Below, one piece after another: positions 1,184 through 62,036 of a stretch of 64,000 nucleotides of DNA. Within the stretch, counting starts at the first letter, position 1. Each line of letters starts with the position of its first letter. The notes below the pieces were generated by a model. It was not told the DNA's origin, ran no database searches, and saw only the letters and a list, made by a program, of their open reading frames with translations. Where the stretch lies: assembly GCA_964344645.1 (NCBI GenBank), contig CAYFOJ010000013.1:61-64060 (forward strand). Direction: 5' to 3'. The position numbers and the translations under genes are program-made. Source of the stretch: an uncultured Thalassospiraceae bacterium (GTDB lineage: Bacteria; Pseudomonadota; Alphaproteobacteria; Rhodospirillales; JABHCV01).

Positions 1184-1349
1184 CCTCAATAGCAAAGGGC
1201 CGCCGAATGCTCGGCGGCCCCTTAAATGCCTCAACCTGTCAAACTCGCCATCATTTTTTTTATTGGCTGGTCGGGGACTTTAACCATGCCGCCGGGCCTT
1301 GGCAAGCGGGAAATTAAACCAGACGACACGAACACCTGATTTTATTGAC

Positions 1350-3932: not shown

Positions 3933-4697
3933 ATGACGCATCCGCTGATGCCCAAAGCCACGGCCGTATGGCTGGTTGAAAACACCGCTCTTTCCTTCGA
4001 GCAGATCGCCGATTTTTGCGGCTTGCATTCCCTCGAAGTGCAGGCCATCGCCGACGATGAAGTCGCCATCGGCATGCAGGGCCTGGACCCCGTCGCCGCC
4101 GGCGAAGTGACCATGGAGGAAATCGAGCGCTGCCAGGCGGACCCGGGCGCGCGCCTCAACCCGGCCGCCGAAAGGACCCCGGTGCCGAAGAAGAAGGGCG
4201 CACGCTACACGCCGGTTTCCAAGCGTCAGGACCGCCCCGACGCCATCGCCTGGTTGCTCAAGAACTATCCCGAGATGAGCGACGCGCAGATTTCCAAGCT
4301 GATCGGCACCACCAAGCCGACCATCAATTCCATCCGCGACCGCAGCCACTGGAACGCGCCCAACATCAAGGCGCAGAACCCGGTCGGCCTGGGCCTGTGC
4401 TCGGCCAACGACCTAGAAAAGGCGGTCGCCGTGGCCCGCGCCCGCGCTGGCACCGTCCACGCCCCCAACCGGGGCCCGAAGGAAGACGAAGCGGCGCCCG
4501 AGGTGGCGGAGCCGACGCCGGAATCGAACCCGGAGCCGACCGTCGAATCCGTGTTCAAGGATCAGTTGCCGGCGCCGGAAAACGAAACCCTGGCGATTAC
4601 GGAAAACACCGACTCGACGCCCATTGCCATGCCCTCCCCCGACGACGGTCAGTCCGACCCCATCGCCATGCCGGGGCCGGACCAAGACGAGAACTGA
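3933..4697 (+). CDS. trcR: DUF1013 protein, TrcR-like RNA-polymerase-associated cell-cycle regulator
   Basis: PLMPKATAVWLVENTALSFEQIADFCGLH.LEV..IAD and RYTPVSKRQDRPDAI.WL motifs; acidic low-complexity tail. Confidence 0.85.
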   Translation: MTHPLMPKATAVWLVENTALSFEQIADFCGLHSLEVQAIADDEVAIGMQGLDPVAAGEVTMEEIERCQADPGARLNPAAERTPVPKKKGARYTPVSKRQDRPDAIAWLLKNYPEMSDAQISKLIGTTKPTINSIRDRSHWNAPNIKAQNPVGLGLCSANDLEKAVAVARARAGTVHAPNRGPKEDEAAPEVAEPTPESNPEPTVESVFKDQLPAPENETLAITENTDSTPIAMPSPDDGQSDPIAMPGPDQDEN

Positions 4698-4718
4698 CGC
4701 TGAATTCGATTCAACTTG

Positions 4719-4766
4719 GGGTAACGTCCGCCCACCGGCGGTGCGGCACATACCCTTTGTTTTTTT
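4719..4766 (+). terminator. probable intrinsic terminator after trcR
   Basis: GGGTA...TACCC outer stem enclosing CACC/GGTG, followed by TTTGTTTTTTT. Confidence 0.6.
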
Positions 4767-4781
4767 CGTCAATCGCCTGTA

Positions 4782-4982
4782 AGCTTTCGTCGGAATCTAG
4801 ACGCAAGGTTTCGGGGCTTAGAAAACCTCTACAGAGCGGCCAATTGCTAGCCGGAAATAGCGATGCTCCTGACTTCTCGGTCGGGGTGCCTGTGGTTATA
4901 CAACAGGCCCTCCGGCTAAAGGCTACAGGGGCCGTCTCTGTACGGTTTTTCTAACACCCCGATCAGCAAGTCGGACGAAGCT
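4782..4982. other. ~200-nt imperfect inverted-repeat element (structured RNA or MITE-like)
   Basis: Six nested complementary blocks: 4782-94/4971-82, 4811-16/4957-62, 4818-27/4944-54, 4830-36/4936-42, 4837-41/4930-34, 4848-55/4911-18. Two inner hairpins at 4868-85 and 4888-4908. Confidence 0.6.
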
Positions 4983-5028
4983 ATCTTGCGGTGGGCGCAC
5001 CGTGGGCTCTGGCCTCACCTTTGATAGG

Positions 5029-8000
5029 ATGGATTCGTCATCGATGGCGACGGAAAAAGTAATCATTGTCGACGACGACCGGGCGCTGCTCGATTCCTTC
5101 CGTCGCCAGTACCGCAGCCGTTTCAACCTGATGACGGAAGAAAGCGGCTACGATGTCCTAAAACACCCCTTCGATAAAGAACCGGTGGCCGTAATCGTCG
5201 TCGATATGCGCATGCCCGGCATGGACGGCATTGAACTACTGAAGCAGGTCAAGAGCCTGTCGCCGCTAACCACCCGCATCATGCTGACGGGAAACGCCGA
5301 CCAGATGACGGCGCAAAACGCCATCAACGAAGGCAACATTTTCCGCTTCTACTGCAAGCCCTGCCCACAGGAAGTGCTGGCGATGGGAATCGAGGACGGA
5401 ATCGCCGAGCATGTCCGGCTGGTCAACCAAGAGGAAACCCAGCGCCGCAGAACGGAAAACGAAGTCAAGGCGCGAACCCGGGACCTGAAGAACGAGGTTG
5501 TCGCACAAGAAAAGATTTCGGCCGAACTGCAGGCAATTCTCGACAACATGACGGAGACCGTCTACCGGACTGACATCGACGGGGTGATCACCCTGGTTTC
5601 CCGGTCCGTCAAATCTCTGACCGGCTACGACCCAGATGAAGTCCTCGGCAAGGATCTCGGCGATTACTATGTCGAACCCGCCAAGCGGGATGATTTCCTC
5701 GCCATCCTCCGCGACATGGGAGGTCAAATTCAAAACCACGAAATCCCCCTGCGGCATAAGGAAGGCCACACCGTCTGGGTGTCCGTGAACGCGCATTTCA
5801 TCTATGACGACGACAGGAAGCTTCTCGGCGTCGAGGGAACCGCGCGGGACATCACCCGGCGCAAGGACACGGAAACCAAATTGGCGGAGAACACCAGGGA
5901 ACTTGAATTCCAGAAGTTCGCCATGGACCAGCACGCCATTGTCAGCGTGACCGACGCCGAGGGAACCATCACCTACGTCAACGACAGATTTTGCCATATC
6001 AGCGGCTATTTGCGCGAAGAGTTGATCGGTCAAAACCACCGAATTCTCAAGTCCGGTGAGCATCAACCGCCATTCTTCCAGGAGCAATGGACAAGGCTCT
6101 CCAAGGGCCAGGTCTGGAGCGGCCAGATGAAGAACAGGCGCAAGAACGGCAGCCATTTCTGGGTCGAGGCGACCCTCATTCCGTTCCTCGACGACAATGC
6201 CCGGCCATATCAGTTCTACGGCGTGCAAACGGACATCACCGAGCAGAAGGAAACAGAGGCCCGCCTGGTCAAGAGCGAGGAGGCCATGCGCGCCGCCCGC
6301 AAGGCCGCCGACGACGCGGATTTCCGCCTGACCACGGCTCTCAATTCCATCGAGGACGGCTTCGCCCTTTTCGACAGCCAGGACCGGTTCGTCCTGTGCA
6401 ACCACGTCTGCAAGAACATCTTTCGAAATTCCGCCGACACGCTGGTTCCGGGCACGCCCTTCGAGGAGATCGTCAGAACCCAGGCCGAACAAGGCGATAT
6501 CGCCCAGGCCGACGGCCGCGTCGAGGAGTGGGTGACGGAACAAATGGCCGTCCGCCAGTCCGGCAAACCCTACCGTGAACTGGAATTGAGCGACGGGCGC
6601 CGGTTCAGAGTCGCCACCCACCCGACCCCCGACGGCGGCAAGGTGACATTCATGACCGATATCACCGAGCTGTGGAAAAGCAATCAGGCCCTCAAGGAAA
6701 GTGAGGCCAAGCTGCGCGATTATGCGGAGACATCCGCCGATTGGTACTGGGACATGGACGCCGACCTCCGCTTCAGTGCCTATTCCGGCAATATCGCTCG
6801 CTACGCCCTGGACCCCAGCCAGTTAATCGGCAAGCAACGCTGGGATCTGGCCGATGCGGACCTAACCACCGAACACTGGCGAAGGCACAAAGCAGACCTG
6901 GAGGACCGACGGCCTTTCAAGGATTTCGAATACTCTCTGAAACGCCCGGACGGTCAATGGATTCACGTCAGCGTCAGCGGCAAACCCGTGTTCGACGATG
7001 ACGGCATTTTCCAGGGCTACCGGGGCACGACGAAGGATATCTCCACCATTAGGCATTTGAAGGAGAACCTTGAGACCGCCCTCAATCACGCCGAGGCCGC
7101 CAATCAAGCGAAATCCGGTTTCCTTGCCTCCATGAGCCATGAAATCCGCACCCCCATGGCCGGCGTCATGGGCTTTGCCGACATGCTCATGGAAGACGAC
7201 ATGCCACCGGAAAGCATGGAGAAAGTCTATCGGATTAGAGAATCCACCCAATCCCTGCTGTCCATTCTCAACGGCATTCTCGATATTTCGAAACTGGAGG
7301 CGGGAAAAATGGAGATCGAGACCCTCGATTTTCATCTGCCGTCCCTGCTCGACGGCGCCGTCGACATGTTCCACGAGAAGAACGAGGCGGACCATCGCCG
7401 GAATTTGACGATTTCGTCCGAGCTCTCCGACGACCTGCCCGAGAACATTCAATCGGACCCGACACGGCTCAGGCAAATTTTGCTCAACCTGATGGGCAAC
7501 GCGGTGAAGTTCACCGAGGCCGGTGGGGTCACCCTGAAGGCAGACATGATTCGCGACAACAGTGCAGACATGCTGCGCTTCCAGGTGGCCGACACCGGCA
7601 TCGGCCTGAAGCCCGAACACATTGAAAAGCTGTTCACGGACTACACCCAGGCGGAGGCATCGACCAGCCGCCACTATCAGGGCACGGGTCTAGGCCTTTC
7701 CATCTGCAAACAACTGGTCAACCTGATGGGCGGGGAAATCGCCGTCGAAAGCACCCCGGATGTCGGAAGCACCTTCTGGTTCACCCTGCCCTACGTCAGG
7801 GCCGAAACCGATCCGGAAACCGAAGGCGGACGAAAGGAAGTCAAATTCGCAGGACGGCGCAAGCTGCGTATTCTCGCCGCCGAGGACAACGGCCTGAACC
7901 AGCGCATCATCATGGCGATCATGACCGCCTACGGCCACGACGTGGAAATCACCGAGAACGGAGCCCTGGCCGTGGAAGCCCAACGGACGGGAGATTACGA

Positions 8001-8271
8001 CCTGATCCTAATGGACATTCGCATGCCGGAAATGAACGGACCCGATGCGGCCCGTGAAATCCGCCGGATGTCGGGGGACAAGGGAAAGATTCCGATCATC
8101 GCCCTGACGGCGGACGCCATGACCGAAAACCGGCACGCCTACTTTGAAGCCGGAATGAACGAGATCGTCACCAAGCCCATTGACCGCGCCGAACTGCTGG
8201 GCGCCATCAACACGGTCATGGGCGAGGACATCCACGTCGTTGTTGAAAACGTGGACGGCTCCTCGGGGTAA
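5029..8271 (+). CDS. hybrid sensor histidine kinase (REC-multiple PAS/PAC-HisKA-HATPase-REC)
   Basis: N-terminal IVDDD...VVDMRMPGMDG receiver; PAS/PAC repeats; H-box FLASMSHEIRTPM; GTGLGL G-box; C-terminal LILMDIRMP receiver. Start could be 5029 or 5044. Confidence 0.92.
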   Translation: MDSSSMATEKVIIVDDDRALLDSFRRQYRSRFNLMTEESGYDVLKHPFDKEPVAVIVVDMRMPGMDGIELLKQVKSLSPLTTRIMLTGNADQMTAQNAINEGNIFRFYCKPCPQEVLAMGIEDGIAEHVRLVNQEETQRRRTENEVKARTRDLKNEVVAQEKISAELQAILDNMTETVYRTDIDGVITLVSRSVKSLTGYDPDEVLGKDLGDYYVEPAKRDDFLAILRDMGGQIQNHEIPLRHKEGHTVWVSVNAHFIYDDDRKLLGVEGTARDITRRKDTETKLAENTRELEFQKFAMDQHAIVSVTDAEGTITYVNDRFCHISGYLREELIGQNHRILKSGEHQPPFFQEQWTRLSKGQVWSGQMKNRRKNGSHFWVEATLIPFLDDNARPYQFYGVQTDITEQKETEARLVKSEEAMRAARKAADDADFRLTTALNSIEDGFALFDSQDRFVLCNHVCKNIFRNSADTLVPGTPFEEIVRTQAEQGDIAQADGRVEEWVTEQMAVRQSGKPYRELELSDGRRFRVATHPTPDGGKVTFMTDITELWKSNQALKESEAKLRDYAETSADWYWDMDADLRFSAYSGNIARYALDPSQLIGKQRWDLADADLTTEHWRRHKADLEDRRPFKDFEYSLKRPDGQWIHVSVSGKPVFDDDGIFQGYRGTTKDISTIRHLKENLETALNHAEAANQAKSGFLASMSHEIRTPMAGVMGFADMLMEDDMPPESMEKVYRIRESTQSLLSILNGILDISKLEAGKMEIETLDFHLPSLLDGAVDMFHEKNEADHRRNLTISSELSDDLPENIQSDPTRLRQILLNLMGNAVKFTEAGGVTLKADMIRDNSADMLRFQVADTGIGLKPEHIEKLFTDYTQAEASTSRHYQGTGLGLSICKQLVNLMGGEIAVESTPDVGSTFWFTLPYVRAETDPETEGGRKEVKFAGRRKLRILAAEDNGLNQRIIMAIMTAYGHDVEITENGALAVEAQRTGDYDLILMDIRMPEMNGPDAAREIRRMSGDKGKIPIIALTADAMTENRHAYFEAGMNEIVTKPIDRAELLGAINTVMGEDIHVVVENVDGSSG

Positions 8272-8274
8272 GGC

Positions 8275-10185
8275 CTATCCCCTCGCCGAGGCCAGCCCGA
8301 TGCTCTCCAAGGCGACTTCGATTTCACCCAGGATCGCCGGATCGTCGATGGTCGCGGGGACCTTGTAGTCCTCGTTGTCGGCGATTTTCTGAATGGTTCC
8401 GCGCAGGATCTTGCCGGAACGGGTCTTCGGCAAGCGCTCGACCACGGTGGCCAGCTTGAAGGCGGCGACGGGACCGATCTTGTCGCGCACCATGGCCACC
8501 ACGTCCTTGACGATTTCCCCGTGTTCCCGGTTGACGCCGGCCTTCAGGACCAGGAAGCCGACGGGCAGTTGCCCCTTCAGCTTGTCGGCGACGCCAAGCA
8601 CGGCGCATTCGGCCACATCGGGATGGGCGGCCAGCACTTCCTCCATGCCGCCGGTCGAAAGCCTGTGCCCGGCGACGTTGATGATGTCGTCGGTGCGGGC
8701 CATGATGTAGAGGTAGCCTTCCTCGTCGATGTAACCGGCGTCGGCGGTTTTGTAGTAGCCGGGGAATTCCTCAAGATAGGCTTCCTTGAAGCGTTCTTCC
8801 GCGTTCCACAGGGTCGGCAGGGTTCCCGGAGGCAGCGGCAGTTTGCAGCAGATGGCTCCGATGTCGCCCCTCGGCACTTGGTTGTTGGCCTCATCCAGAA
8901 CCTGCACGTCCCAGCCGGGGGCCGCCTTGGTCGGCGAACCGGCCTTGACCGGGAAGGCGTGCAGCCCCATGCAGTTGGCGGCAATGGCCCAGCCGGTTTC
9001 CGTCTGCCACCAGTGGTCGATGACCGGAACCTTCAGGTTGTCCTCGGCCCAGTGCAGGGTATCCGGGTCGGTGCGTTCGCCGGCCAGGAACAGGGTGTCG
9101 AAGCCGGACATGTCGTATTGCTTCAACAGTTCGGCCTTGGGGTCGTCGCGCTTGATGGCGCGGAACGCCGTCGGCGCTGTGAACAGGATGCGGACCTTGT
9201 GTTCCGCGATCACCCGCCAGAACGCGCCCGCGTCGGGGGTTCCCACCGGCTTGCCCTCGTAAATCACCGTGGTGCAGCCGGCCAGCAGGGGGGCATAGAC
9301 GATATAGGAATGGCCGACCACCCAGCCGACATCGGACGCCGCCCAGAAGACGTCGCCGGGATTGGCCCCGTAGACGGCGTTCATGGTCCAATTGAGGGCC
9401 ACCGCATGGCCGCCGTTGTCGCGCACCACGCCCTTGGGCTGGCCCGTGGTGCCCGAGGTATAGAGGATGTAAAGGGGGTCCGTCGCCGCCACGGTGACGC
9501 AATCATGGGGCTCGGCGGTCTTCATGGCCTCGGCCCAATCCACGTCGCGGCCTTCCTTTAATTCGGCCTGGGCCTCGGGACGCCTCAAAATGACGCAGGC
9601 GTCGGGCTTGTGGCTGGCGAGATCGATGGCGCCGTTCAGCAGCGGCATGTATTCGATCACCCGGTTGACCTCGATGCCGCAGGTGGCGCTGACGATGGCC
9701 TTGGGCTTGGCGTCGTCGATGCGCACGGCCAGTTCATTGGCGGCGAAACCGCCGAAAACGACGGAATGAATGGCGCCGAGACGGGCGCAGGCCAGCATGG
9801 CGATGGCCGCTTCCGGCACCATGGGCATGTAGATGATGACCCGGTCCCCCTTGGCGACGCCCTGGGCCGCCAGGATACCGGCGAACTTGGCCGTTTCGTC
9901 CCGCAATTGGGAATAGGTGTAGGTGCGCACCGTGCCGCCGCCGGTGACCGGGCTGTCGTAAATCAGCGCCGCCTGATCGCCGCGTCCGTTTTCCACATGC
10001 CGGTCCAGGGCATTATAGCAGGTGTTCAACTCGCCGCCGCTGAACCAGCGGTACAAGGGCGCGTTGGAGTCATCGAGAACCTTGTCCCATTTCCTGCTCC
10101 AGGTGATGCCTTCGGCGACATCGCCCCAAAATCCGTTGGGGTCGTTCAGGGAACGGGAATGGGCTTCTGTATACAGATCGGTCAT
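8275..10185 (-). CDS. prpE: propionyl-CoA synthetase (acetate/propionate-CoA ligase)
   Basis: YILYTSGTTGQPKGV, IDHWWQTETG and PKTRSGKILR motifs; GGGGA RBS before the ATG at 10185. Confidence 0.88.
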   Translation of the reverse strand: MTDLYTEAHSRSLNDPNGFWGDVAEGITWSRKWDKVLDDSNAPLYRWFSGGELNTCYNALDRHVENGRGDQAALIYDSPVTGGGTVRTYTYSQLRDETAKFAGILAAQGVAKGDRVIIYMPMVPEAAIAMLACARLGAIHSVVFGGFAANELAVRIDDAKPKAIVSATCGIEVNRVIEYMPLLNGAIDLASHKPDACVILRRPEAQAELKEGRDVDWAEAMKTAEPHDCVTVAATDPLYILYTSGTTGQPKGVVRDNGGHAVALNWTMNAVYGANPGDVFWAASDVGWVVGHSYIVYAPLLAGCTTVIYEGKPVGTPDAGAFWRVIAEHKVRILFTAPTAFRAIKRDDPKAELLKQYDMSGFDTLFLAGERTDPDTLHWAEDNLKVPVIDHWWQTETGWAIAANCMGLHAFPVKAGSPTKAAPGWDVQVLDEANNQVPRGDIGAICCKLPLPPGTLPTLWNAEERFKEAYLEEFPGYYKTADAGYIDEEGYLYIMARTDDIINVAGHRLSTGGMEEVLAAHPDVAECAVLGVADKLKGQLPVGFLVLKAGVNREHGEIVKDVVAMVRDKIGPVAAFKLATVVERLPKTRSGKILRGTIQKIADNEDYKVPATIDDPAILGEIEVALESIGLASARG

Positions 10186-59300: not shown

Positions 59301-62036
59301 TCAGTCGACGGTTCCCATGCCCCGGACGTGACGCCGGACCTCCATGAACGCCGCCTGCAGCGGTTCGCTCAACGCAATCGCCGCGTCGCGGTCCTCATTG
59401 TTCAGGGCCATATAAATATCCTGACAGACCCTCCCCAGCCGCATGGCTCCGGCCATGTGCGACGCCCCCTTGGCGGCGTGGGAGGCCTCGGTGGCGAGCC
59501 GCCAGTCCCTATTGATCAGTCCATCGGCGATATCCCGCACCAGCGGTTCCGTCGAGTGGATGAATTCCGCCAGCAGATCGGGAAACAGGCTTTTGTCTTC
59601 GAAAACCTCGGACAGGTAGTCCATGTCGAGAACCGGCTCCTCCAGCCCTCGCGGCCCGGCTTCCCCGGCGGGGGGGTGCTCGGAAGTCCCCTCTCGCGCC
59701 CTTTGCCGGACGGGAACATGGATCTCCTCGCCCATGACCCGGTTGATGGCATCCAGCAGCGTCGGGCGGTAGATGGGCTTGACCACCATTTCGTCCATTC
59801 CGGCGGCCAGACACTCCCGCCGGTTTTCCCGCATGGCGTCGGCGGTCAGGGCGATGATCGGCGTCCTGCCCTTTTCGTCGGGAATACGGCGGATCGTCCG
59901 CGATGCCTCATGGCCGGACACCCCCGGCATTCGCACATCCATCAAAATCAAATCAAAATCGCCCCGTTCATGGGCCTCCACGGCCTGCTGGCCATCCTCG
60001 GCCAGGGTCACTTCGTGGCCGTAGTGTTCCATCGCCCCCTTGATAACGGTGCGATTGATGGCGACGTCGTCGACGACAAGCACGTTCAATTCACGCCGGG
60101 CCACGAATTCCGCATCCTGATCGATGCTGATGGGTTCGGCTACGTCTTCCCGGGCGGGCCGATAGGGCACGGTGAACCAGAACGTGCTGCCGACGCCGAT
60201 GCGGCTTTCAACGCCGATTTCTCCGCCCATCAAATCGACCAGGCGGCTACAGATGGAAAGGCCCAGTCCCGTCCCTTGGTATTTTCGGCTGATGGAGGCA
60301 TCCGCCTGGGTAAATTCCGAGAACACCTTGGCCAAGGACGTCTTGGTCATGCCGATGCCGCTGTCGGTGACGGCGAAGTGAAGGCTCTGCTCCCCCTCCT
60401 TCGAGGTGTCCAGCCCGACGTCGATCTTGACCCCGCCCAATTCCGTGAACTTGACCGCGTTGCCGATCAGGTTAAGAAGAACCTGCCTGAGGCGCGTCGG
60501 ATCGGAATGCACGGCCGGGGGCAAATCCTCGGCGCAGGCTACCGTCAGTTCCAGTTCCCTTGAGTCCGTGTTGTTTTCAAACAGCGCCGCAGACTCCCTG
60601 ATCAGAGACGGCAGATGGAAATCCATGTTCTCGATTTCCATCTTCCCCGCTTCCAGCTTCGACAGGTCGAGAATTTCATTCAACAGGGTCAGCAGGATTT
60701 CCATGGAGTTCTTGACCTGAATGGCCTTTTGCCGGCTGCCGTCGGTCAGGTTATCGTCGAGAAGCATATCGGCGTATCCCATGACGCCGGTCATGGGGGT
60801 GCGGATCTCGTGGCTCATGGAGGCGAGAAATTCGGATTTCGCCCGGTTGGCCTCGATGGCCACCTGCTCGGCCTCTTTTAACGCCGTGATGTCCGTGCGG
60901 ATGCCGACGATGCCGCCTTCCTGGGTCTTGCGTTCTTCGATACGCAACCATCTCCCGTTTCCAAGCAGCTGTTCGATGACCCCCAATGGGTTTTGATGGG
61001 CGGCGACCCTCTCTTTGACGAACTCCTCCTCCCGTCCGACGGCCTGGGCGTACTGTCCCCTCTCGGTGCCGTAACGGATGATGTCCTCGAAGGTGGCGCC
61101 CGGGACGATCGCCGCGGCGCTGTCGGCGTAGATTTCCCTGTAGCGTTCATTGCACAGGGCCAGCTTGTCGTTCTTGTCGTACAGGCAGAACCCCTCGGAA
61201 ATAGAAGTCAGGGCGTCGTTGAGCTGCTCCTGTGCCGCAATCGCCATTTCCTCCGCGGCCTTGCGCTCGGTGACATCGAAAAACACGCCCATCCTGGCAA
61301 TCACCCGGCCGGCTTCGTCCTTGATCGGGTTGACGCTCAGGTCCCCCCAGAGAATTGATCCGTCTTTTCTCAGATAGCGCTTTTCCAGCCGGTAGGAATC
61401 GATATCTCCGGTCATCAGATCCCGGTTCTTTCCCTCGTTCAGGCCCACGTCGTCGGGATGGGTGATATCGGCCCTGCTCATGCCGATCATTTGCTCGGGA
61501 CTGTAACCGAGCATTGTTGCCCAGGCCTCGTTGACTTCCCGATAGACGCCGTCCGCATCGGCAATGGAGATGCCGACCTGGGTGGTGTGGAAGATCGACC
61601 GGAAGCGTTCTTCGCTCAGCCGGTTCCGGGCCTCGACAAGCTTGTCCGCCGTGATATCCGTCTGGACGGAAACCATCCCGCCGCTGGCCATTGTCCGGTC
61701 GACAATCCGCAGCCAGCGCCCATCCTGCAACCGGACCTCAAAGACCCCTTCGCGAGTCGCCTCTTCCGGGGCGCCGCTGTCGAAGAAACCGACCCGGTTT
61801 CCGCCATCGGCAATGGCGACCCCGTTGTCGACGTCGTAGTCGACCAATTGGCGGAAATGCACGCCCGGACACACCTGATCGTCCGTGTACCCGTACAGAT
61901 CACGGAAAGCCCGGTTGCAGACAAGCAACCCCCCTTCCCGGTCATAGGCGACAAAGGCTTCCTCCATGCTGTCGAGGGCCAGCAGAAGCAGGTCGTTATC
62001 CACATTGGAGAATAAATGCTTGTCGGTCATCACCAT
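59301..62036 (-). CDS. hybrid histidine kinase (PAS x3-HisKA-HATPase-REC-Hpt)
   Basis: FLASMSHEIRTPM; GTGLGL; LILMDVRMP receiver; SHAAKGAS..AGA Hpt motif. Confidence 0.92.
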   Translation of the reverse strand: MVMTDKHLFSNVDNDLLLLALDSMEEAFVAYDREGGLLVCNRAFRDLYGYTDDQVCPGVHFRQLVDYDVDNGVAIADGGNRVGFFDSGAPEEATREGVFEVRLQDGRWLRIVDRTMASGGMVSVQTDITADKLVEARNRLSEERFRSIFHTTQVGISIADADGVYREVNEAWATMLGYSPEQMIGMSRADITHPDDVGLNEGKNRDLMTGDIDSYRLEKRYLRKDGSILWGDLSVNPIKDEAGRVIARMGVFFDVTERKAAEEMAIAAQEQLNDALTSISEGFCLYDKNDKLALCNERYREIYADSAAAIVPGATFEDIIRYGTERGQYAQAVGREEEFVKERVAAHQNPLGVIEQLLGNGRWLRIEERKTQEGGIVGIRTDITALKEAEQVAIEANRAKSEFLASMSHEIRTPMTGVMGYADMLLDDNLTDGSRQKAIQVKNSMEILLTLLNEILDLSKLEAGKMEIENMDFHLPSLIRESAALFENNTDSRELELTVACAEDLPPAVHSDPTRLRQVLLNLIGNAVKFTELGGVKIDVGLDTSKEGEQSLHFAVTDSGIGMTKTSLAKVFSEFTQADASISRKYQGTGLGLSICSRLVDLMGGEIGVESRIGVGSTFWFTVPYRPAREDVAEPISIDQDAEFVARRELNVLVVDDVAINRTVIKGAMEHYGHEVTLAEDGQQAVEAHERGDFDLILMDVRMPGVSGHEASRTIRRIPDEKGRTPIIALTADAMRENRRECLAAGMDEMVVKPIYRPTLLDAINRVMGEEIHVPVRQRAREGTSEHPPAGEAGPRGLEEPVLDMDYLSEVFEDKSLFPDLLAEFIHSTEPLVRDIADGLINRDWRLATEASHAAKGASHMAGAMRLGRVCQDIYMALNNEDRDAAIALSEPLQAAFMEVRRHVRGMGTVD

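Follow-up and report, generated by a model that had tools for sequence, protein, structure and literature searches.

The stretch of DNA analysed here (64,000 nucleotides from an uncultured Thalassospiraceae bacterium; hereafter, the window) carries an inverted repeat at positions 4782-4982, between trcR and a gene for a hybrid histidine kinase. A sequence-only reading of this region had described nested complementary blocks that form a long stem, and folding calculations agree with that description: the plus strand of 4770-4995 reaches -96.4 kcal/mol, compared with -72.3 +/- 4.8 kcal/mol for 200 dinucleotide shuffles (z = -5.07, with 0 shuffles as good), and the minus strand of the same segment gives z = -5.35. 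The inverted repeat is genuine. It represents one copy of a folded leader RNA that is widespread in mobile elements of Alphaproteobacteria and has not been catalogued. The conserved unit is larger than the hairpin noted first; it covers ~255 nt of the plus strand (about 4791-5044) and is ordered as a promoter-like site, hairpin P0, a ~26-bp rod (P1-P3) with three cap hairpins, a linker, P4/P5, and the kinase ribosome-binding site (RBS) (Table 1).

The finer architecture differs in several places from that first description. The CCTGAC/GTCGGG hairpin is borne out as Hx, which is conserved among relatives; the cap, given as two hairpins, holds three, H1' having been overlooked, and in place of the proposed GCCTGT/ACAGGC pairing a long hairpin (4889-4896/4922-4929) with an apical stem (4906-4909/4914-4917) has more compensatory support. 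The supposed 16x8-nt internal bubble consists of a separate conserved hairpin, P0, on its 5' side and a conserved linker on its 3' side. Conservation among relatives does not extend to the outermost block of the repeat (4782-4794/4971-4982), which overlaps the predicted -10 box and transcription start, as well as the 5' strand of P4. The element was thought to end ~46 nt before the kinase start, and the conserved unit extends to 5016 (P4/P5), reaching the kinase RBS. A hairpin at 4906-4933, suggested to compete with the inner stem, pointed correctly to a genuine alternative fold, although it is only one sign of that fold, which is of the sRNA-Xcc1 type and has its own closing stem. Every pair of P1, P2, and P3 is canonical in a pair check of the window copy, and all helices of both folds as well as P4/P5 are intact in it, save that P4 has a single A-C mismatch and P5 several G-U pairs.

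On the upstream side, a terminator scan detected no terminator after trcR, where one had been assumed, and the T-run at 4756-4766 lines up with a promoter-proximal box of the family, CCCTTT(A/G)T. The promoter region of relatives has CTTTAT-N17-TAAnGT in common, ending ~7 nt 5' of P0 (alignment A6); a strict sigma-70 consensus scan found no promoter at 4755-4785. We infer a promoter at this site and transcription of the leader in this organism.

Table 1. Features of the leader and of the kinase gene that follows it (window positions).
Feature	Position	Strand	Remarks
Promoter-like region: box CTTTGT/TTTGTT 4755-4762, -10-like TAAGCT 4780-4785	4755-4785	+	conservation only
Predicted transcription start	about 4791-4792	+	inferred position
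P0 hairpin, 4792-4797/4807-4812	4792-4812	+	conserved loop motif GACGCA
Rod 5' arm: P1 4813-4816, P2 4818-4827, P3 4830-4841	4813-4841	+	pairs with 4930-4960
Hairpin H1', 4843-4849/4858-4864	4843-4864	+	loop with conserved RCCG
Hairpin Hx: pyrimidine-rich UCCUGAC 4867-4873 with GUCGGGG 4880-4886	4867-4886	+	
sRNA-Xcc1-like core	4879-4972	+	RF02221 match
Core closing stem	4879-4888/4955-4964	+	
Core long hairpin, internal loop UAUACAAC/UAAAG	4889-4929	+	UAUACAAC at 4897-4904
Core hairpin 2	4930-4935/4942-4947	+	
Rod 3' arm: P3 4930-4942, P2 4944-4954, P1 4957-4960	4930-4960	+	
Linker GAUCAGCA...	4961-4976	+	family consensus GAUCACCA
P4 4977-4983/5010-5016 around P5 4985-4992/4999-5006	4977-5016	+	
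P5 loop GGGCGC	4993-4998	+	near-invariant
Kinase RBS AGGAUGG; probable start ATG 5044-5046, alternative ATG 5029	5026-5032 (RBS)	+	read from sequence; frame confirmed
Cargo gene: hybrid histidine kinase (REC, PAS repeats, HisKA, HATPase_c, REC)	5044-8271	+	Pfam

Distribution, covariation, and gene context

A covariance model was built from the window copy alone, a full-length match being one to positions 1-178. With this model, 52 of 401 genomes from the same order, representing 24 of its 136 genera, yielded full-length copies (1-6 apiece), and the element was absent from the remaining 349. The model also matched all of 100 class-wide loci that had been selected solely via the 3' core motif (99 at full length, one interrupted by a contig end), from Sphingomonadales, Rhodobacterales, Hyphomicrobiales, Caulobacterales, and Rhodospirillales. 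About 150 relatives of the locus were examined.

In the rod fold, 97.1% and 96.0% of cells were paired, compared with 81% and 79.5% after shuffling and 33-53% when partners were slid, percent paired being inflated by the fitting of alignments A4 and A8 to the modelled structure. The slid controls, the MAFFT-based test of P4/P5, and the test of the alternative fold (fold B) are unaffected by this fitting. Compensatory changes were seen in 36 of 58 and 37 of 58 rod-fold pairs, and all four Watson-Crick types occur at P3 pairs across 34 and 94 distinct sequences. P0 (98.7-99% of cells paired) has compensatory changes in 5-6 of its 6 pairs and H1' in 7 of 7; Hx is paired in 99% of cells, with variation chiefly from C-G to U-G. 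For P4/P5, a plain MAFFT alignment of 28 copies gave 83.7% of cells paired versus 72.9% shuffled, with 12 of 15 pairs compensatory; P5 is 88-95% paired and P4 74%, and the aligned copies have no consistent U-tract after P4/P5. RNAalifold on a plain MAFFT alignment produced a muddled consensus because variable stems were misaligned, and it was superseded by the single-sequence covariance model followed by realignment. A pseudoknot search for further covarying columns in the 178-nt unit brought up only one pair above phylogenetic noise, 4887:4956 of fold B. Covariation is very strong in the rod fold, and the core closing stem and P4/P5 covary as well.

Wobble pairs were used to assign the strand. 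On the gene-sense strand, G-U/U-G outnumber A-C/C-A combinations by 199 to 13 and by 630 to 52, and this preference of 12-15 to 1 indicates that the fold is under selection on the gene-sense strand, as RNA. The asymmetry bears on the idea that the element is a single-stranded DNA (ssDNA) promoter or priming signal of the Frpo/ssi type, which would fold in the transferred conjugative strand and drive early expression. A large imperfect hairpin directly 5' of genes on plasmids and integrative elements would suit such an identity, and hairpins of this kind define ssDNA promoter classes on F and IncI plasmids (PMC11541004, PMC12672017, PMC9849209). However, the sense-strand G-U pairs (199-630) would be A-C mismatches on the template, versus only 13-52 sense A-C combinations; a scan and inspection found no -35/-10 pair rebuilt in the stem, and the second fold and P4/P5 would have no role in such a promoter. 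Although Frpo/ssi hairpins resemble the window family in lying upstream of accessory genes of conjugative elements, the family differs by its wobble asymmetry on the other strand, by the absence of promoter boxes in the stem, and by the absence of homology; the F-plasmid leading region holding Frpo1/2 had no RF02221 match in an Rfam scan. Template-strand folding is excluded by the wobble asymmetry, and we regard an ssDNA promoter as highly improbable.

The position of the leader relative to genes is fixed. An ORF with a Shine-Dalgarno site follows in the same orientation in 112 of 120 loci, mostly 59-70 nt past the core. Among 106 cargo genes, RovC_DNA-bd/DUF2285 (29), DUF5818 (14), XRE HTH (3), TraM (2), GIY-YIG (2), and SNase (1) were recognised, and the cargo of the family consists of varied genes of plasmids, integrative elements, and phages, mostly small regulators. 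Copies were found on a conjugative Bosea plasmid, on Agrobacterium and Brucella plasmids, and in island-like loci. The family RBS is YCGGGGA, its GGGGA being present in 62 of 85 relatives and lacking in the window copy. An HTH_36 gene recurs upstream in three loci, the upstream flanks being otherwise unrelated, and tandem arrays of copies were observed in one genome (G262).

In same-genus relatives, what comes after trcR is either ACS alone or an SDR gene plus ACS, and leader and kinase are absent. The inserted leader-kinase segment has a lower GC content, and no full-length orthologue of the kinase was found among 40 relatives. Leader and kinase are a lineage-specific, horizontal acquisition, in keeping with the foreign origin proposed for the element. 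That origin, the inverted-repeat shape, and the patchy distribution would also fit a MITE or degenerate IS remnant with the arms as terminal inverted repeats, as had been suggested. Yet BLAST and the covariance model both gave a single copy in this genome, not many dispersed ones, and copies elsewhere number 1-6 per genome; orientation and distance to the ORF are constant; and the neighbourhoods inspected showed no transposase next to the element. Sequence conservation is lacking in the arms, which covary, with G-U favoured over A-C, and the ends vary by compensatory change (TTAGAA/TTCTAA, TTCGAA/TTCGAA, TTCACA/TGTGAA). These data make a MITE extremely improbable.

A second fold related to sRNA-Xcc1

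The 3' half of the leader is a sub-threshold relative of sRNA-Xcc1. In a 1.2-kb search, the core matched Rfam model RF02221 with 35.9 bits (E 2.7e-4) over model positions 1-87 of 87; the gathering threshold of 53 bits was not reached by the window copy, and relatives score at most 38 bits. Pairing in the core closing stem reaches 99.4% and is accompanied by compensatory changes. Positions 4887 and 4956 do not pair in the rod; in the closing stem they form A-U in 21 sequences and U-A in 11, and their W:W combinations are complementary in 93 of 93 sequences. The closing stem and the rod are mutually exclusive, and Hx, which exists in the rod fold only, vies with the closing stem for GGUCGGGG. 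Because the closing stem covaries even though it is incompatible with the rod, two folds are under selection. In the window copy, the rod has a predicted energy of -68.6 kcal/mol and the Xcc1 fold one of -47.0 kcal/mol.

sRNA-Xcc1 is an 88-nt RNA of Xanthomonas campestris that also occurs in integron cassettes, Xylella islands, and APSE phages, and it is found on mobile elements upstream of symE and ORF6N protein genes (bioRxiv 10.1101/2025.06.18.660453; PMC7313666; PMC12189769). The mapped 5' end of the Xanthomonas RNA is the first base of the closing stem, where the Rfam model begins (PMC2996969). The window core aligns end to end with this family and has its 9-10 bp closing stem, second hairpin, three-way junction, and long hairpin with an AUACAA internal loop; carriage on mobile elements upstream of an accessory gene holds for the window family as well. 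Whereas the published family is described as an 88-nt trans-acting RNA ending in a U-run, the core here is situated within a ~255-nt leader that also comprises P0, P4/P5, a 5' arm, and two further hairpins, and the closing stem in the window is followed by AGCA, P4/P5, and the ORF, with no U-run. The AGCA results from a C-to-G change in the nearly invariant ACCA of the linker, which is kept in all but a few of 37 model-selected copies. Annotations of sRNA-Xcc1, which is generally regarded as a virulence RNA of 88 nt acting in trans, have accumulated across many genomes since 2010; to our knowledge, they have so far come without a mechanism.

The same genome has two canonical sRNA-Xcc1 copies on another contig (C73), which score 62 and 61.6 bits, above the gathering threshold. 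Both come with a TTGACA-N17 promoter and form a rod with a 5' arm of their own, and one of them precedes a 68-aa ORF and a P22-type antirepressor gene.

Several known RNA classes were compared with the element. A structured noncoding RNA of 6S-like shape had been suggested, and the first part of that suggestion stands, in that the element is a structured RNA akin to sRNA-Xcc1. A 6S-like RNA imitating an open promoter would share the rod-like outline only: the element is a leader joined to an ORF, mobile and patchy in distribution, a multiloop cap sets it apart from 6S, what was taken for a bubble is hairpin P0 plus a linker, and the 6S model RF00013 had no match in the window element even at E<=10, so that the probability of this identity is practically negligible. 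Exclusive, covariation-supported folds upstream of a gene are shared with two-state riboswitches and attenuators, but the window element has no conserved terminator, leader peptide, known ligand, or Rfam riboswitch match. Attenuation is not supported here, since a conserved intrinsic terminator is lacking; the terminator-like hairpin and T-run that a scan located at 4924-4951 are window-specific, and many copies have CUUACUAAC where a U-run would follow hairpin 2. A leader peptide was rejected on inspection: short frames start at an AUG in the Hx loop of some copies, and the window and many others have no such AUG.

The C4 and IsrK immunity leaders of P1-like phages (RF01695, RF01394) likewise have a structured RNA within the leader of an operon that it possibly controls, with upstream and downstream segments complementary to the same part of that RNA. 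The association with antirepressors is represented here by the C73 copy, and in Xylella the sRNA-Xcc1, C4, and IsrK families are adjacent (PMC12189769). The window family differs in that its shared complementary segment lies in helices, not in exposed loops, and in that repression by base pairing is a proposal; C4 and IsrK models gave no sequence or model match to the window element.

Possible control of the downstream gene

The element is very probably a structured leader RNA of this family and would constitute the transcribed 5' leader of the kinase gene (about 4791-5044, plus strand). Of the three earlier suggestions, a switchable 5' leader for the kinase is the one that these data favour: the fold belongs to the gene-sense strand, reaches the RBS, precedes an ORF in the same orientation, and has an exclusive alternative with compensatory changes in both. 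That the element is such a leader and also acts by a choice among pairing partners is, as a combined reading, likely; the specific regulatory logic set out below is tentative.

In the full-length transcript, the 5' arm would pair with the 3' part of the Xcc1-like domain to give the long rod, in which the core 5' strand GGUCGGGG would be held by the pyrimidine-rich strand within Hx. With the 5' arm removed, the same sequence would refold to the sRNA-Xcc1 shape. The rod 3' arm has CACCCC(GAUC), which is complementary to three GGGG-containing segments, and the C-rich segment C(A/U)CCCCGAUC could accordingly pair with three G-rich partners, namely the 5' arm, the core 5' strand, and, in most relatives, the cargo RBS YCGGGGA. 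Partner choice would set translation of the cargo or stability of the mRNA, and what decides it could be rod processing or capture of the 5' arm by an RNA or a protein. Predicted RBS accessibility had no consistent shift between full-length and 5'-truncated leaders (means 0.28, 0.24, 0.29). Duplexes between RBS and 3' arm were slightly more stable for cognate than for non-cognate combinations (-17.0 versus -16.5 kcal/mol, permutation p = 0.008, with low power in the positive control); this small cognate effect belongs to the family, and the window copy is without it. Since the window copy has no RBS mimic and an altered ACCA, it may keep only part of the original control, with its fold intact.

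These same losses, of the YCGGGGA RBS and of ACCA in favour of AGCA, would be expected if the window copy were an exapted relic, fused to the kinase or arrived with it, that provides a promoter and an inert structured 5' UTR with no switching. The single copy in the genome and the 1075-aa kinase, which is atypical of a cargo made up mostly of small regulators elsewhere, are also in line with a relic. Nearly all helices of both folds and P4/P5 are intact, however, which is unexpected for a neutrally decaying 225-nt sequence, and we consider a relic rather improbable.

The leader might also be a precursor of a small RNA, its rod being cleaved by RNase III, or by RNase P/E at the base of the closing stem, and a product of ~90 nt resembling sRNA-Xcc1 would act in trans, its targets being, for instance, other copies or the 5' arm of its own leader. 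A comparable case is phage P1, whose c4 immunity RNA is excised from the leader of the operon that it represses. A precursor overlaps with the partner-choice leader that we favour, and the two are compatible. Consistent with a precursor, the Xcc1 fold is selected despite a stability ~20 kcal/mol lower than that of the rod in the full-length RNA, and the canonical C73 copies are laid out as small RNA, small ORF, and antirepressor. In C73 copy 2, moreover, the hairpin-2 loop UCCGUUUU is complementary by eye to AAAACGGA at the downstream RBS, and the words UAAAAACGG are repeated, again by eye, in the 5' arm. The position of the Xanthomonas 88-nt 5' end at the first base of the closing stem (PMC2996969) and the tandem arrays in Xylella (PMC12189769), together with those of genome G262, point the same way. 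In contrast, the window genome has a single copy of the subtype, so a trans target is not obvious; the alphaproteobacterial subtype has no conserved terminator 3' of the core, and the variable loop of hairpin 2 in the window has no match near the kinase RBS. We regard a precursor as unlikely.

A more elaborate version of the leader reading would make the family a self-addressed immunity switch of mobile elements. P3 would be a private, freely varying address that becomes the hairpin-2 loop in the Xcc1 fold. A processed Xcc1-type RNA would bind the matching 5' arm of new leaders from the same element, and this binding would release the C(A/U)CCCCGA segment, which would then close the YCGGGGA RBS. 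The outcome would be copy-specific negative feedback on regulators of transfer or induction, such as DUF2285/FseA-like activators, TraM, and antirepressors. All of these steps form one reading, and taken together we think them speculative and improbable. If true, the switch would extend a c4-like principle across proteobacterial plasmids, integrative elements, and phages, and sRNA-Xcc1 would gain its first assigned function.

In this locus and its relatives, the Xcc1 domain makes up the 3' half of a far longer, covariation-supported leader with two selected folds, located upstream of genes for small regulators and of accessory genes belonging to conjugative elements and phages. At Rfam's curated thresholds the alphaproteobacterial subtype goes undetected, although it occurs in ~13% of the sampled genomes of one order and in at least five orders. 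If the leader controls transfer activators of the DUF2285/FseA or TraM type, mobile elements would have an RNA layer, so far unrecognised, in deciding whether to move. In the present genome, a hybrid sensor kinase was acquired with, or put under, the control region of a mobile element.

Structure of the leader and its relation to sRNA-Xcc1

The element upstream of the hybrid histidine kinase gene is very probably a structured leader RNA of an sRNA-Xcc1-related family. When 4300-5500 was scanned against Rfam at E ≤ 10, the single relevant match was sRNA-Xcc1 (RF02221), at 4879-4972 (+), which covered model positions 1-87 of 87 and scored 35.9 bits (gathering score, 53); at the gathering score, no Rfam family matched in the entire 64-kb window. 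The Rfam structure of RF02221 pairs GGUCGGGGUG (4879-4888) with CACCCCGAUC (4955-4964). This closing stem and the long helix P1-P3, or rod, exclude each other, because the CCCC of the former pairs with the 5′ arm in the latter.

The helices of the window element were read from the sequence and each pair was verified by script, which bore out the nested complementary blocks described in an earlier sequence-only reading and its CCTGAC/GTCGGG hairpin, here Hx. Within the rod, H1′, Hx and a long hairpin form a multiloop. The folding check suggested by that reading found the leader region far more stable than shuffles on both strands (z = -5.07 on the plus and -5.35 on the minus strand), with no shuffle as good. 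Its outline of the element had to be redrawn: what was taken for a 16x8 bubble is made up of hairpin P0 (5′ side) and a conserved linker (3′ side), relatives do not conserve the outermost block (4782-4794/4971-4982), and the unit, rather than ending at 4982, continues through a P4/P5 domain common to relatives, up to 5016.

Helices of the window element
Feature	Position	Strand	Basis
Hairpin P0	4792-4797/4807-4812	+	script-checked pairs
Rod P1	4813-4816/4957-4960	+	script-checked pairs
Rod P2	4818-4827/4944-4954	+	script-checked pairs
Rod P3	4830-4841/4930-4942	+	script-checked pairs
Hairpin H1′	4843-4849/4858-4864	+	script-checked pairs
Hairpin Hx	4867-4873/4880-4886	+	script-checked pairs
Long hairpin	4889-4896/4922-4929, apical stem 4906-4909/4914-4917	+	script-checked pairs
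P4	4977-4983/5010-5016	+	family alignment
P5	4985-4992/4999-5006	+	family alignment

The linker 3′ of the rod reads GAUCACCA in the family and GAUCAGCA in the window. P4 of the family (GAAGCCA/UGGCCUC) encloses P5, whose stem covaries freely beneath a near-invariant GGGCGC loop, and compensatory changes were found in 12 of the 15 P4/P5 pairs on a plain MAFFT alignment. P4/P5 is not a terminator, because no consistent U-tract follows it in the family copies. A terminator-like hairpin, TACAGGGG/TCTCTGTA and then GGTTTTTCT, lies within the 3′ arm at 4924-4951; it occurs in the window copy only, and its formation would need an open rod.

An ORF with a Shine-Dalgarno site follows the core in 112 of the 120 loci listed, mostly 59-70 nt away. 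The usual site before this cargo is YCGGGGA (GGGGA in 62/85), which resembles the 5′ arm and the 5′ strand of the core and has its complement in C(A/U)CCCCGA. The window leader keeps all helices, with AGCA for ACCA and, ahead of the probable start at 5044, AGGAUGG for YCGGGGA. In a subgroup, mostly of Rhodobacterales (loci L081, L083, L113, L118, L145, L168, L182, L183 and L192), the called 127-aa ORF begins just 34 nt past the core; possible reasons are a missing P4/P5 domain and miscalled start codons. Two cargo ORFs of the set are assigned to GIY_YIG_2 by Pfam. Many copies carry an upstream motif, CTTTAT-N17-TAAnGT, ending about 7 nt 5′ of P0. Its window counterpart, CTTTGT...TAAGCT (4755-4785), is not called by a consensus promoter scan, and the window promoter is therefore only putative.

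Two selected folds on the sense strand

The rod fold was evaluated on model-fitted alignments, and such fitting favours pairing, although slid controls on the identical alignments collapse: among 34 distinct order-level copies, 97.1% of cells were paired, compared with 81.1% when shuffled and 33-53% when slid, and 36 of 58 pairs showed compensatory changes. The 94 distinct class-level copies among the matches listed gave 96.0% versus 79.5% shuffled, compensatory changes in 37/58 pairs, and all four Watson-Crick types in P3. The Xcc1 fold was tested on an alignment made without fitting to it, and its closing stem was 99.4% paired. Among the aligned sequences, pair 4887:4956, unpaired in the rod, was A-U 21 times, U-A 11 times and G-C once; the selecting motif of the other set admitted any W/W combination, yet complementary combinations alone occurred there (79 AG/CU and 14 UG/CA). 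The closing-stem pairing and this covarying pair, together with the rod covariation, therefore demonstrate that selection acts on both folds. The computed energies for the window RNA (rod, -68.6; Xcc1 fold, -47.0 kcal/mol) suggest that the full-length transcript should be mainly in the rod form, and that the Xcc1 fold should form only when the 5′ arm is missing or already engaged.

G-U/U-G cells in the rod helices outnumbered A-C/C-A cells by 199 to 13 in the order-level set and by 630 to 52 in the class-level set. Selection on the structure therefore acts on the strand that reads in the sense of the downstream gene, and the asymmetry fits an RNA. A single-stranded-DNA promoter of the Frpo type requires a hairpin in the template strand (PMC11541004, PMC9849209, PMC12672017), against which the sense-strand G-U excess argues. 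The RF02221 model did not match the F-plasmid leading region, and the consensus promoter scan found no promoter boxes inside the stem.

Distribution, cargo and acquisition at the kinase locus

A BLAST count of genomic copies, also proposed in the sequence-only reading, returned this locus alone in its own genome and few copies in relatives. Ten alphaproteobacterial plasmids were matched in a plasmid collection, including a conjugative Bosea plasmid, an Agrobacterium pusense pAt plasmid and a Brucella pituitosa plasmid, on which T4SS, thermonuclease, SSB and HTH genes neighbour the element. A covariance model built from the window sequence as sole input, with the rod structure imposed, gave full-length matches in 52 of 401 genomes of the same order (24/136 genera), at 1-6 copies per carrier genome and one in the window's genome. 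Scanning a species-representative collection for exact matches to the motif of just the 3′ core found at least 120 genomes; the matches listed fall in Sphingomonadales, Rhodobacterales, Hyphomicrobiales, Caulobacterales and Rhodospirillales, apart from one Thermomonas and a handful of MAGs with odd binning. All 100 motif-picked loci searched with the rod model matched, each with the 5′ arm (99 full length, one cut by a contig end). The alphaproteobacterial copies scanned, the window's included, are not captured by Rfam at curated thresholds.

Of 106 downstream ORFs, many had no Pfam match; the tally of the rest was RovC_DNA-bd (formerly DUF2285; 29), DUF5818 (14), XRE-type HTH (3), GIY-YIG (2), Prok-TraM (2), SNase (1) and several other membrane or secreted proteins; order-level loci carry zinc-ribbon membrane proteins, secreted proteins, thermonucleases and small ORFs. 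tmRNA fragments are a typical mark of island borders. About 300 nt upstream of one leader copy, at 1200-1284 (minus) of locus L043, such a fragment (25 bits, E 3e-6) suggests an ssrA-integrated island with that copy at its edge. Locus L195 (G262:C2:20600-22600) holds three tandem units of about 297 nt (minus, ~580-1480), each a divergent leader copy followed by a 27-aa cysteine-rich hydrophobic ORF (MGANAIFCSCHTLFASTAVLAFHACCG), with an 18-aa variant and an XRE-like gene beyond, a layout resembling reported Xylella sRNA-Xcc1 arrays. At locus L013 (G048:C1:283000-295000; 5650-6420, minus), the leader and the first ~60 nt of a thermonuclease gene are tandemly duplicated; a truncated signal-peptide stub follows the upstream copy, and a 162-aa HTH_36/RP-C-like gene lies directly upstream.

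A 4.6-kb phage-like contig of the window's own genome (C73; L199, 1880-3372) carries a pair of canonical sRNA-Xcc1 copies, which score 62 and 61.6 bits and are spaced by 432 nt. Both are preceded by a TTGACA-N17-TA(G/T)... promoter and have their own rod-forming 5′ arm (MFE -74 and -79 kcal/mol); thus, the rod-plus-core build is a trait of the wider sRNA-Xcc1 group and not of the new subtype alone. Copy 2 lies upstream of a 68-aa ORF and a P22_AR_N antirepressor gene (E 7e-40), with a Mor-like ORF further on. Phage P1 has a c4-icd-ant layout, which this order of sRNA-Xcc1, small ORF and antirepressor recalls.

Genomes of the same genus have, after trcR, either an SDR gene and an acetyl-CoA-synthetase-like gene on the other strand or just the synthetase, which shares 87% identity with the one in the window. 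At 4698-8275 of the window, the leader and a 1075-aa hybrid kinase sit between trcR and the synthetase, in place of the sister-species SDR gene and in the opposite orientation, and the stop codons of kinase and synthetase are 3 nt apart. The GC content of this segment is 57-60%, versus 63-66% in the flanks (about 5 points lower). No full-length kinase orthologue was found in 40 relatives, where the kinase-receiver half alone matches, to paralogues. The closest leader to that of the window (177 bits) stands before a zinc-ribbon membrane protein in a genome from another family of the order. Gene order, GC content, the lack of a full-length orthologue and the origin of this closest leader point to a lineage-specific acquisition or fusion of leader and kinase. 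At least 15 paralogous hybrid-kinase loci of the window's own genome share 45-59% identity with the kinase-receiver half, one of them in the window at ~59700-60860 (minus).

Possible mode of action

These data establish a sense-strand structure with two exclusive selected folds, which is carried by mobile elements and has a fixed site ahead of an ORF. The leader may be transcribed from its own promoter and fold as the rod; if the 5′ arm were then removed or captured, the Xcc1 fold would be able to form, and the partner chosen by the C-rich segment could determine cargo translation or mRNA fate. Thermodynamic prediction of ribosome-binding-site accessibility gave no simple on/off pattern, and a weak test for copy-specific complementarity between that site and the 3′ arm showed a small effect; this specific regulatory logic is therefore proposed tentatively. 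None of the papers surveyed that mention sRNA-Xcc1 describes an alphaproteobacterial family of leaders, a second domain or a 5′ arm.
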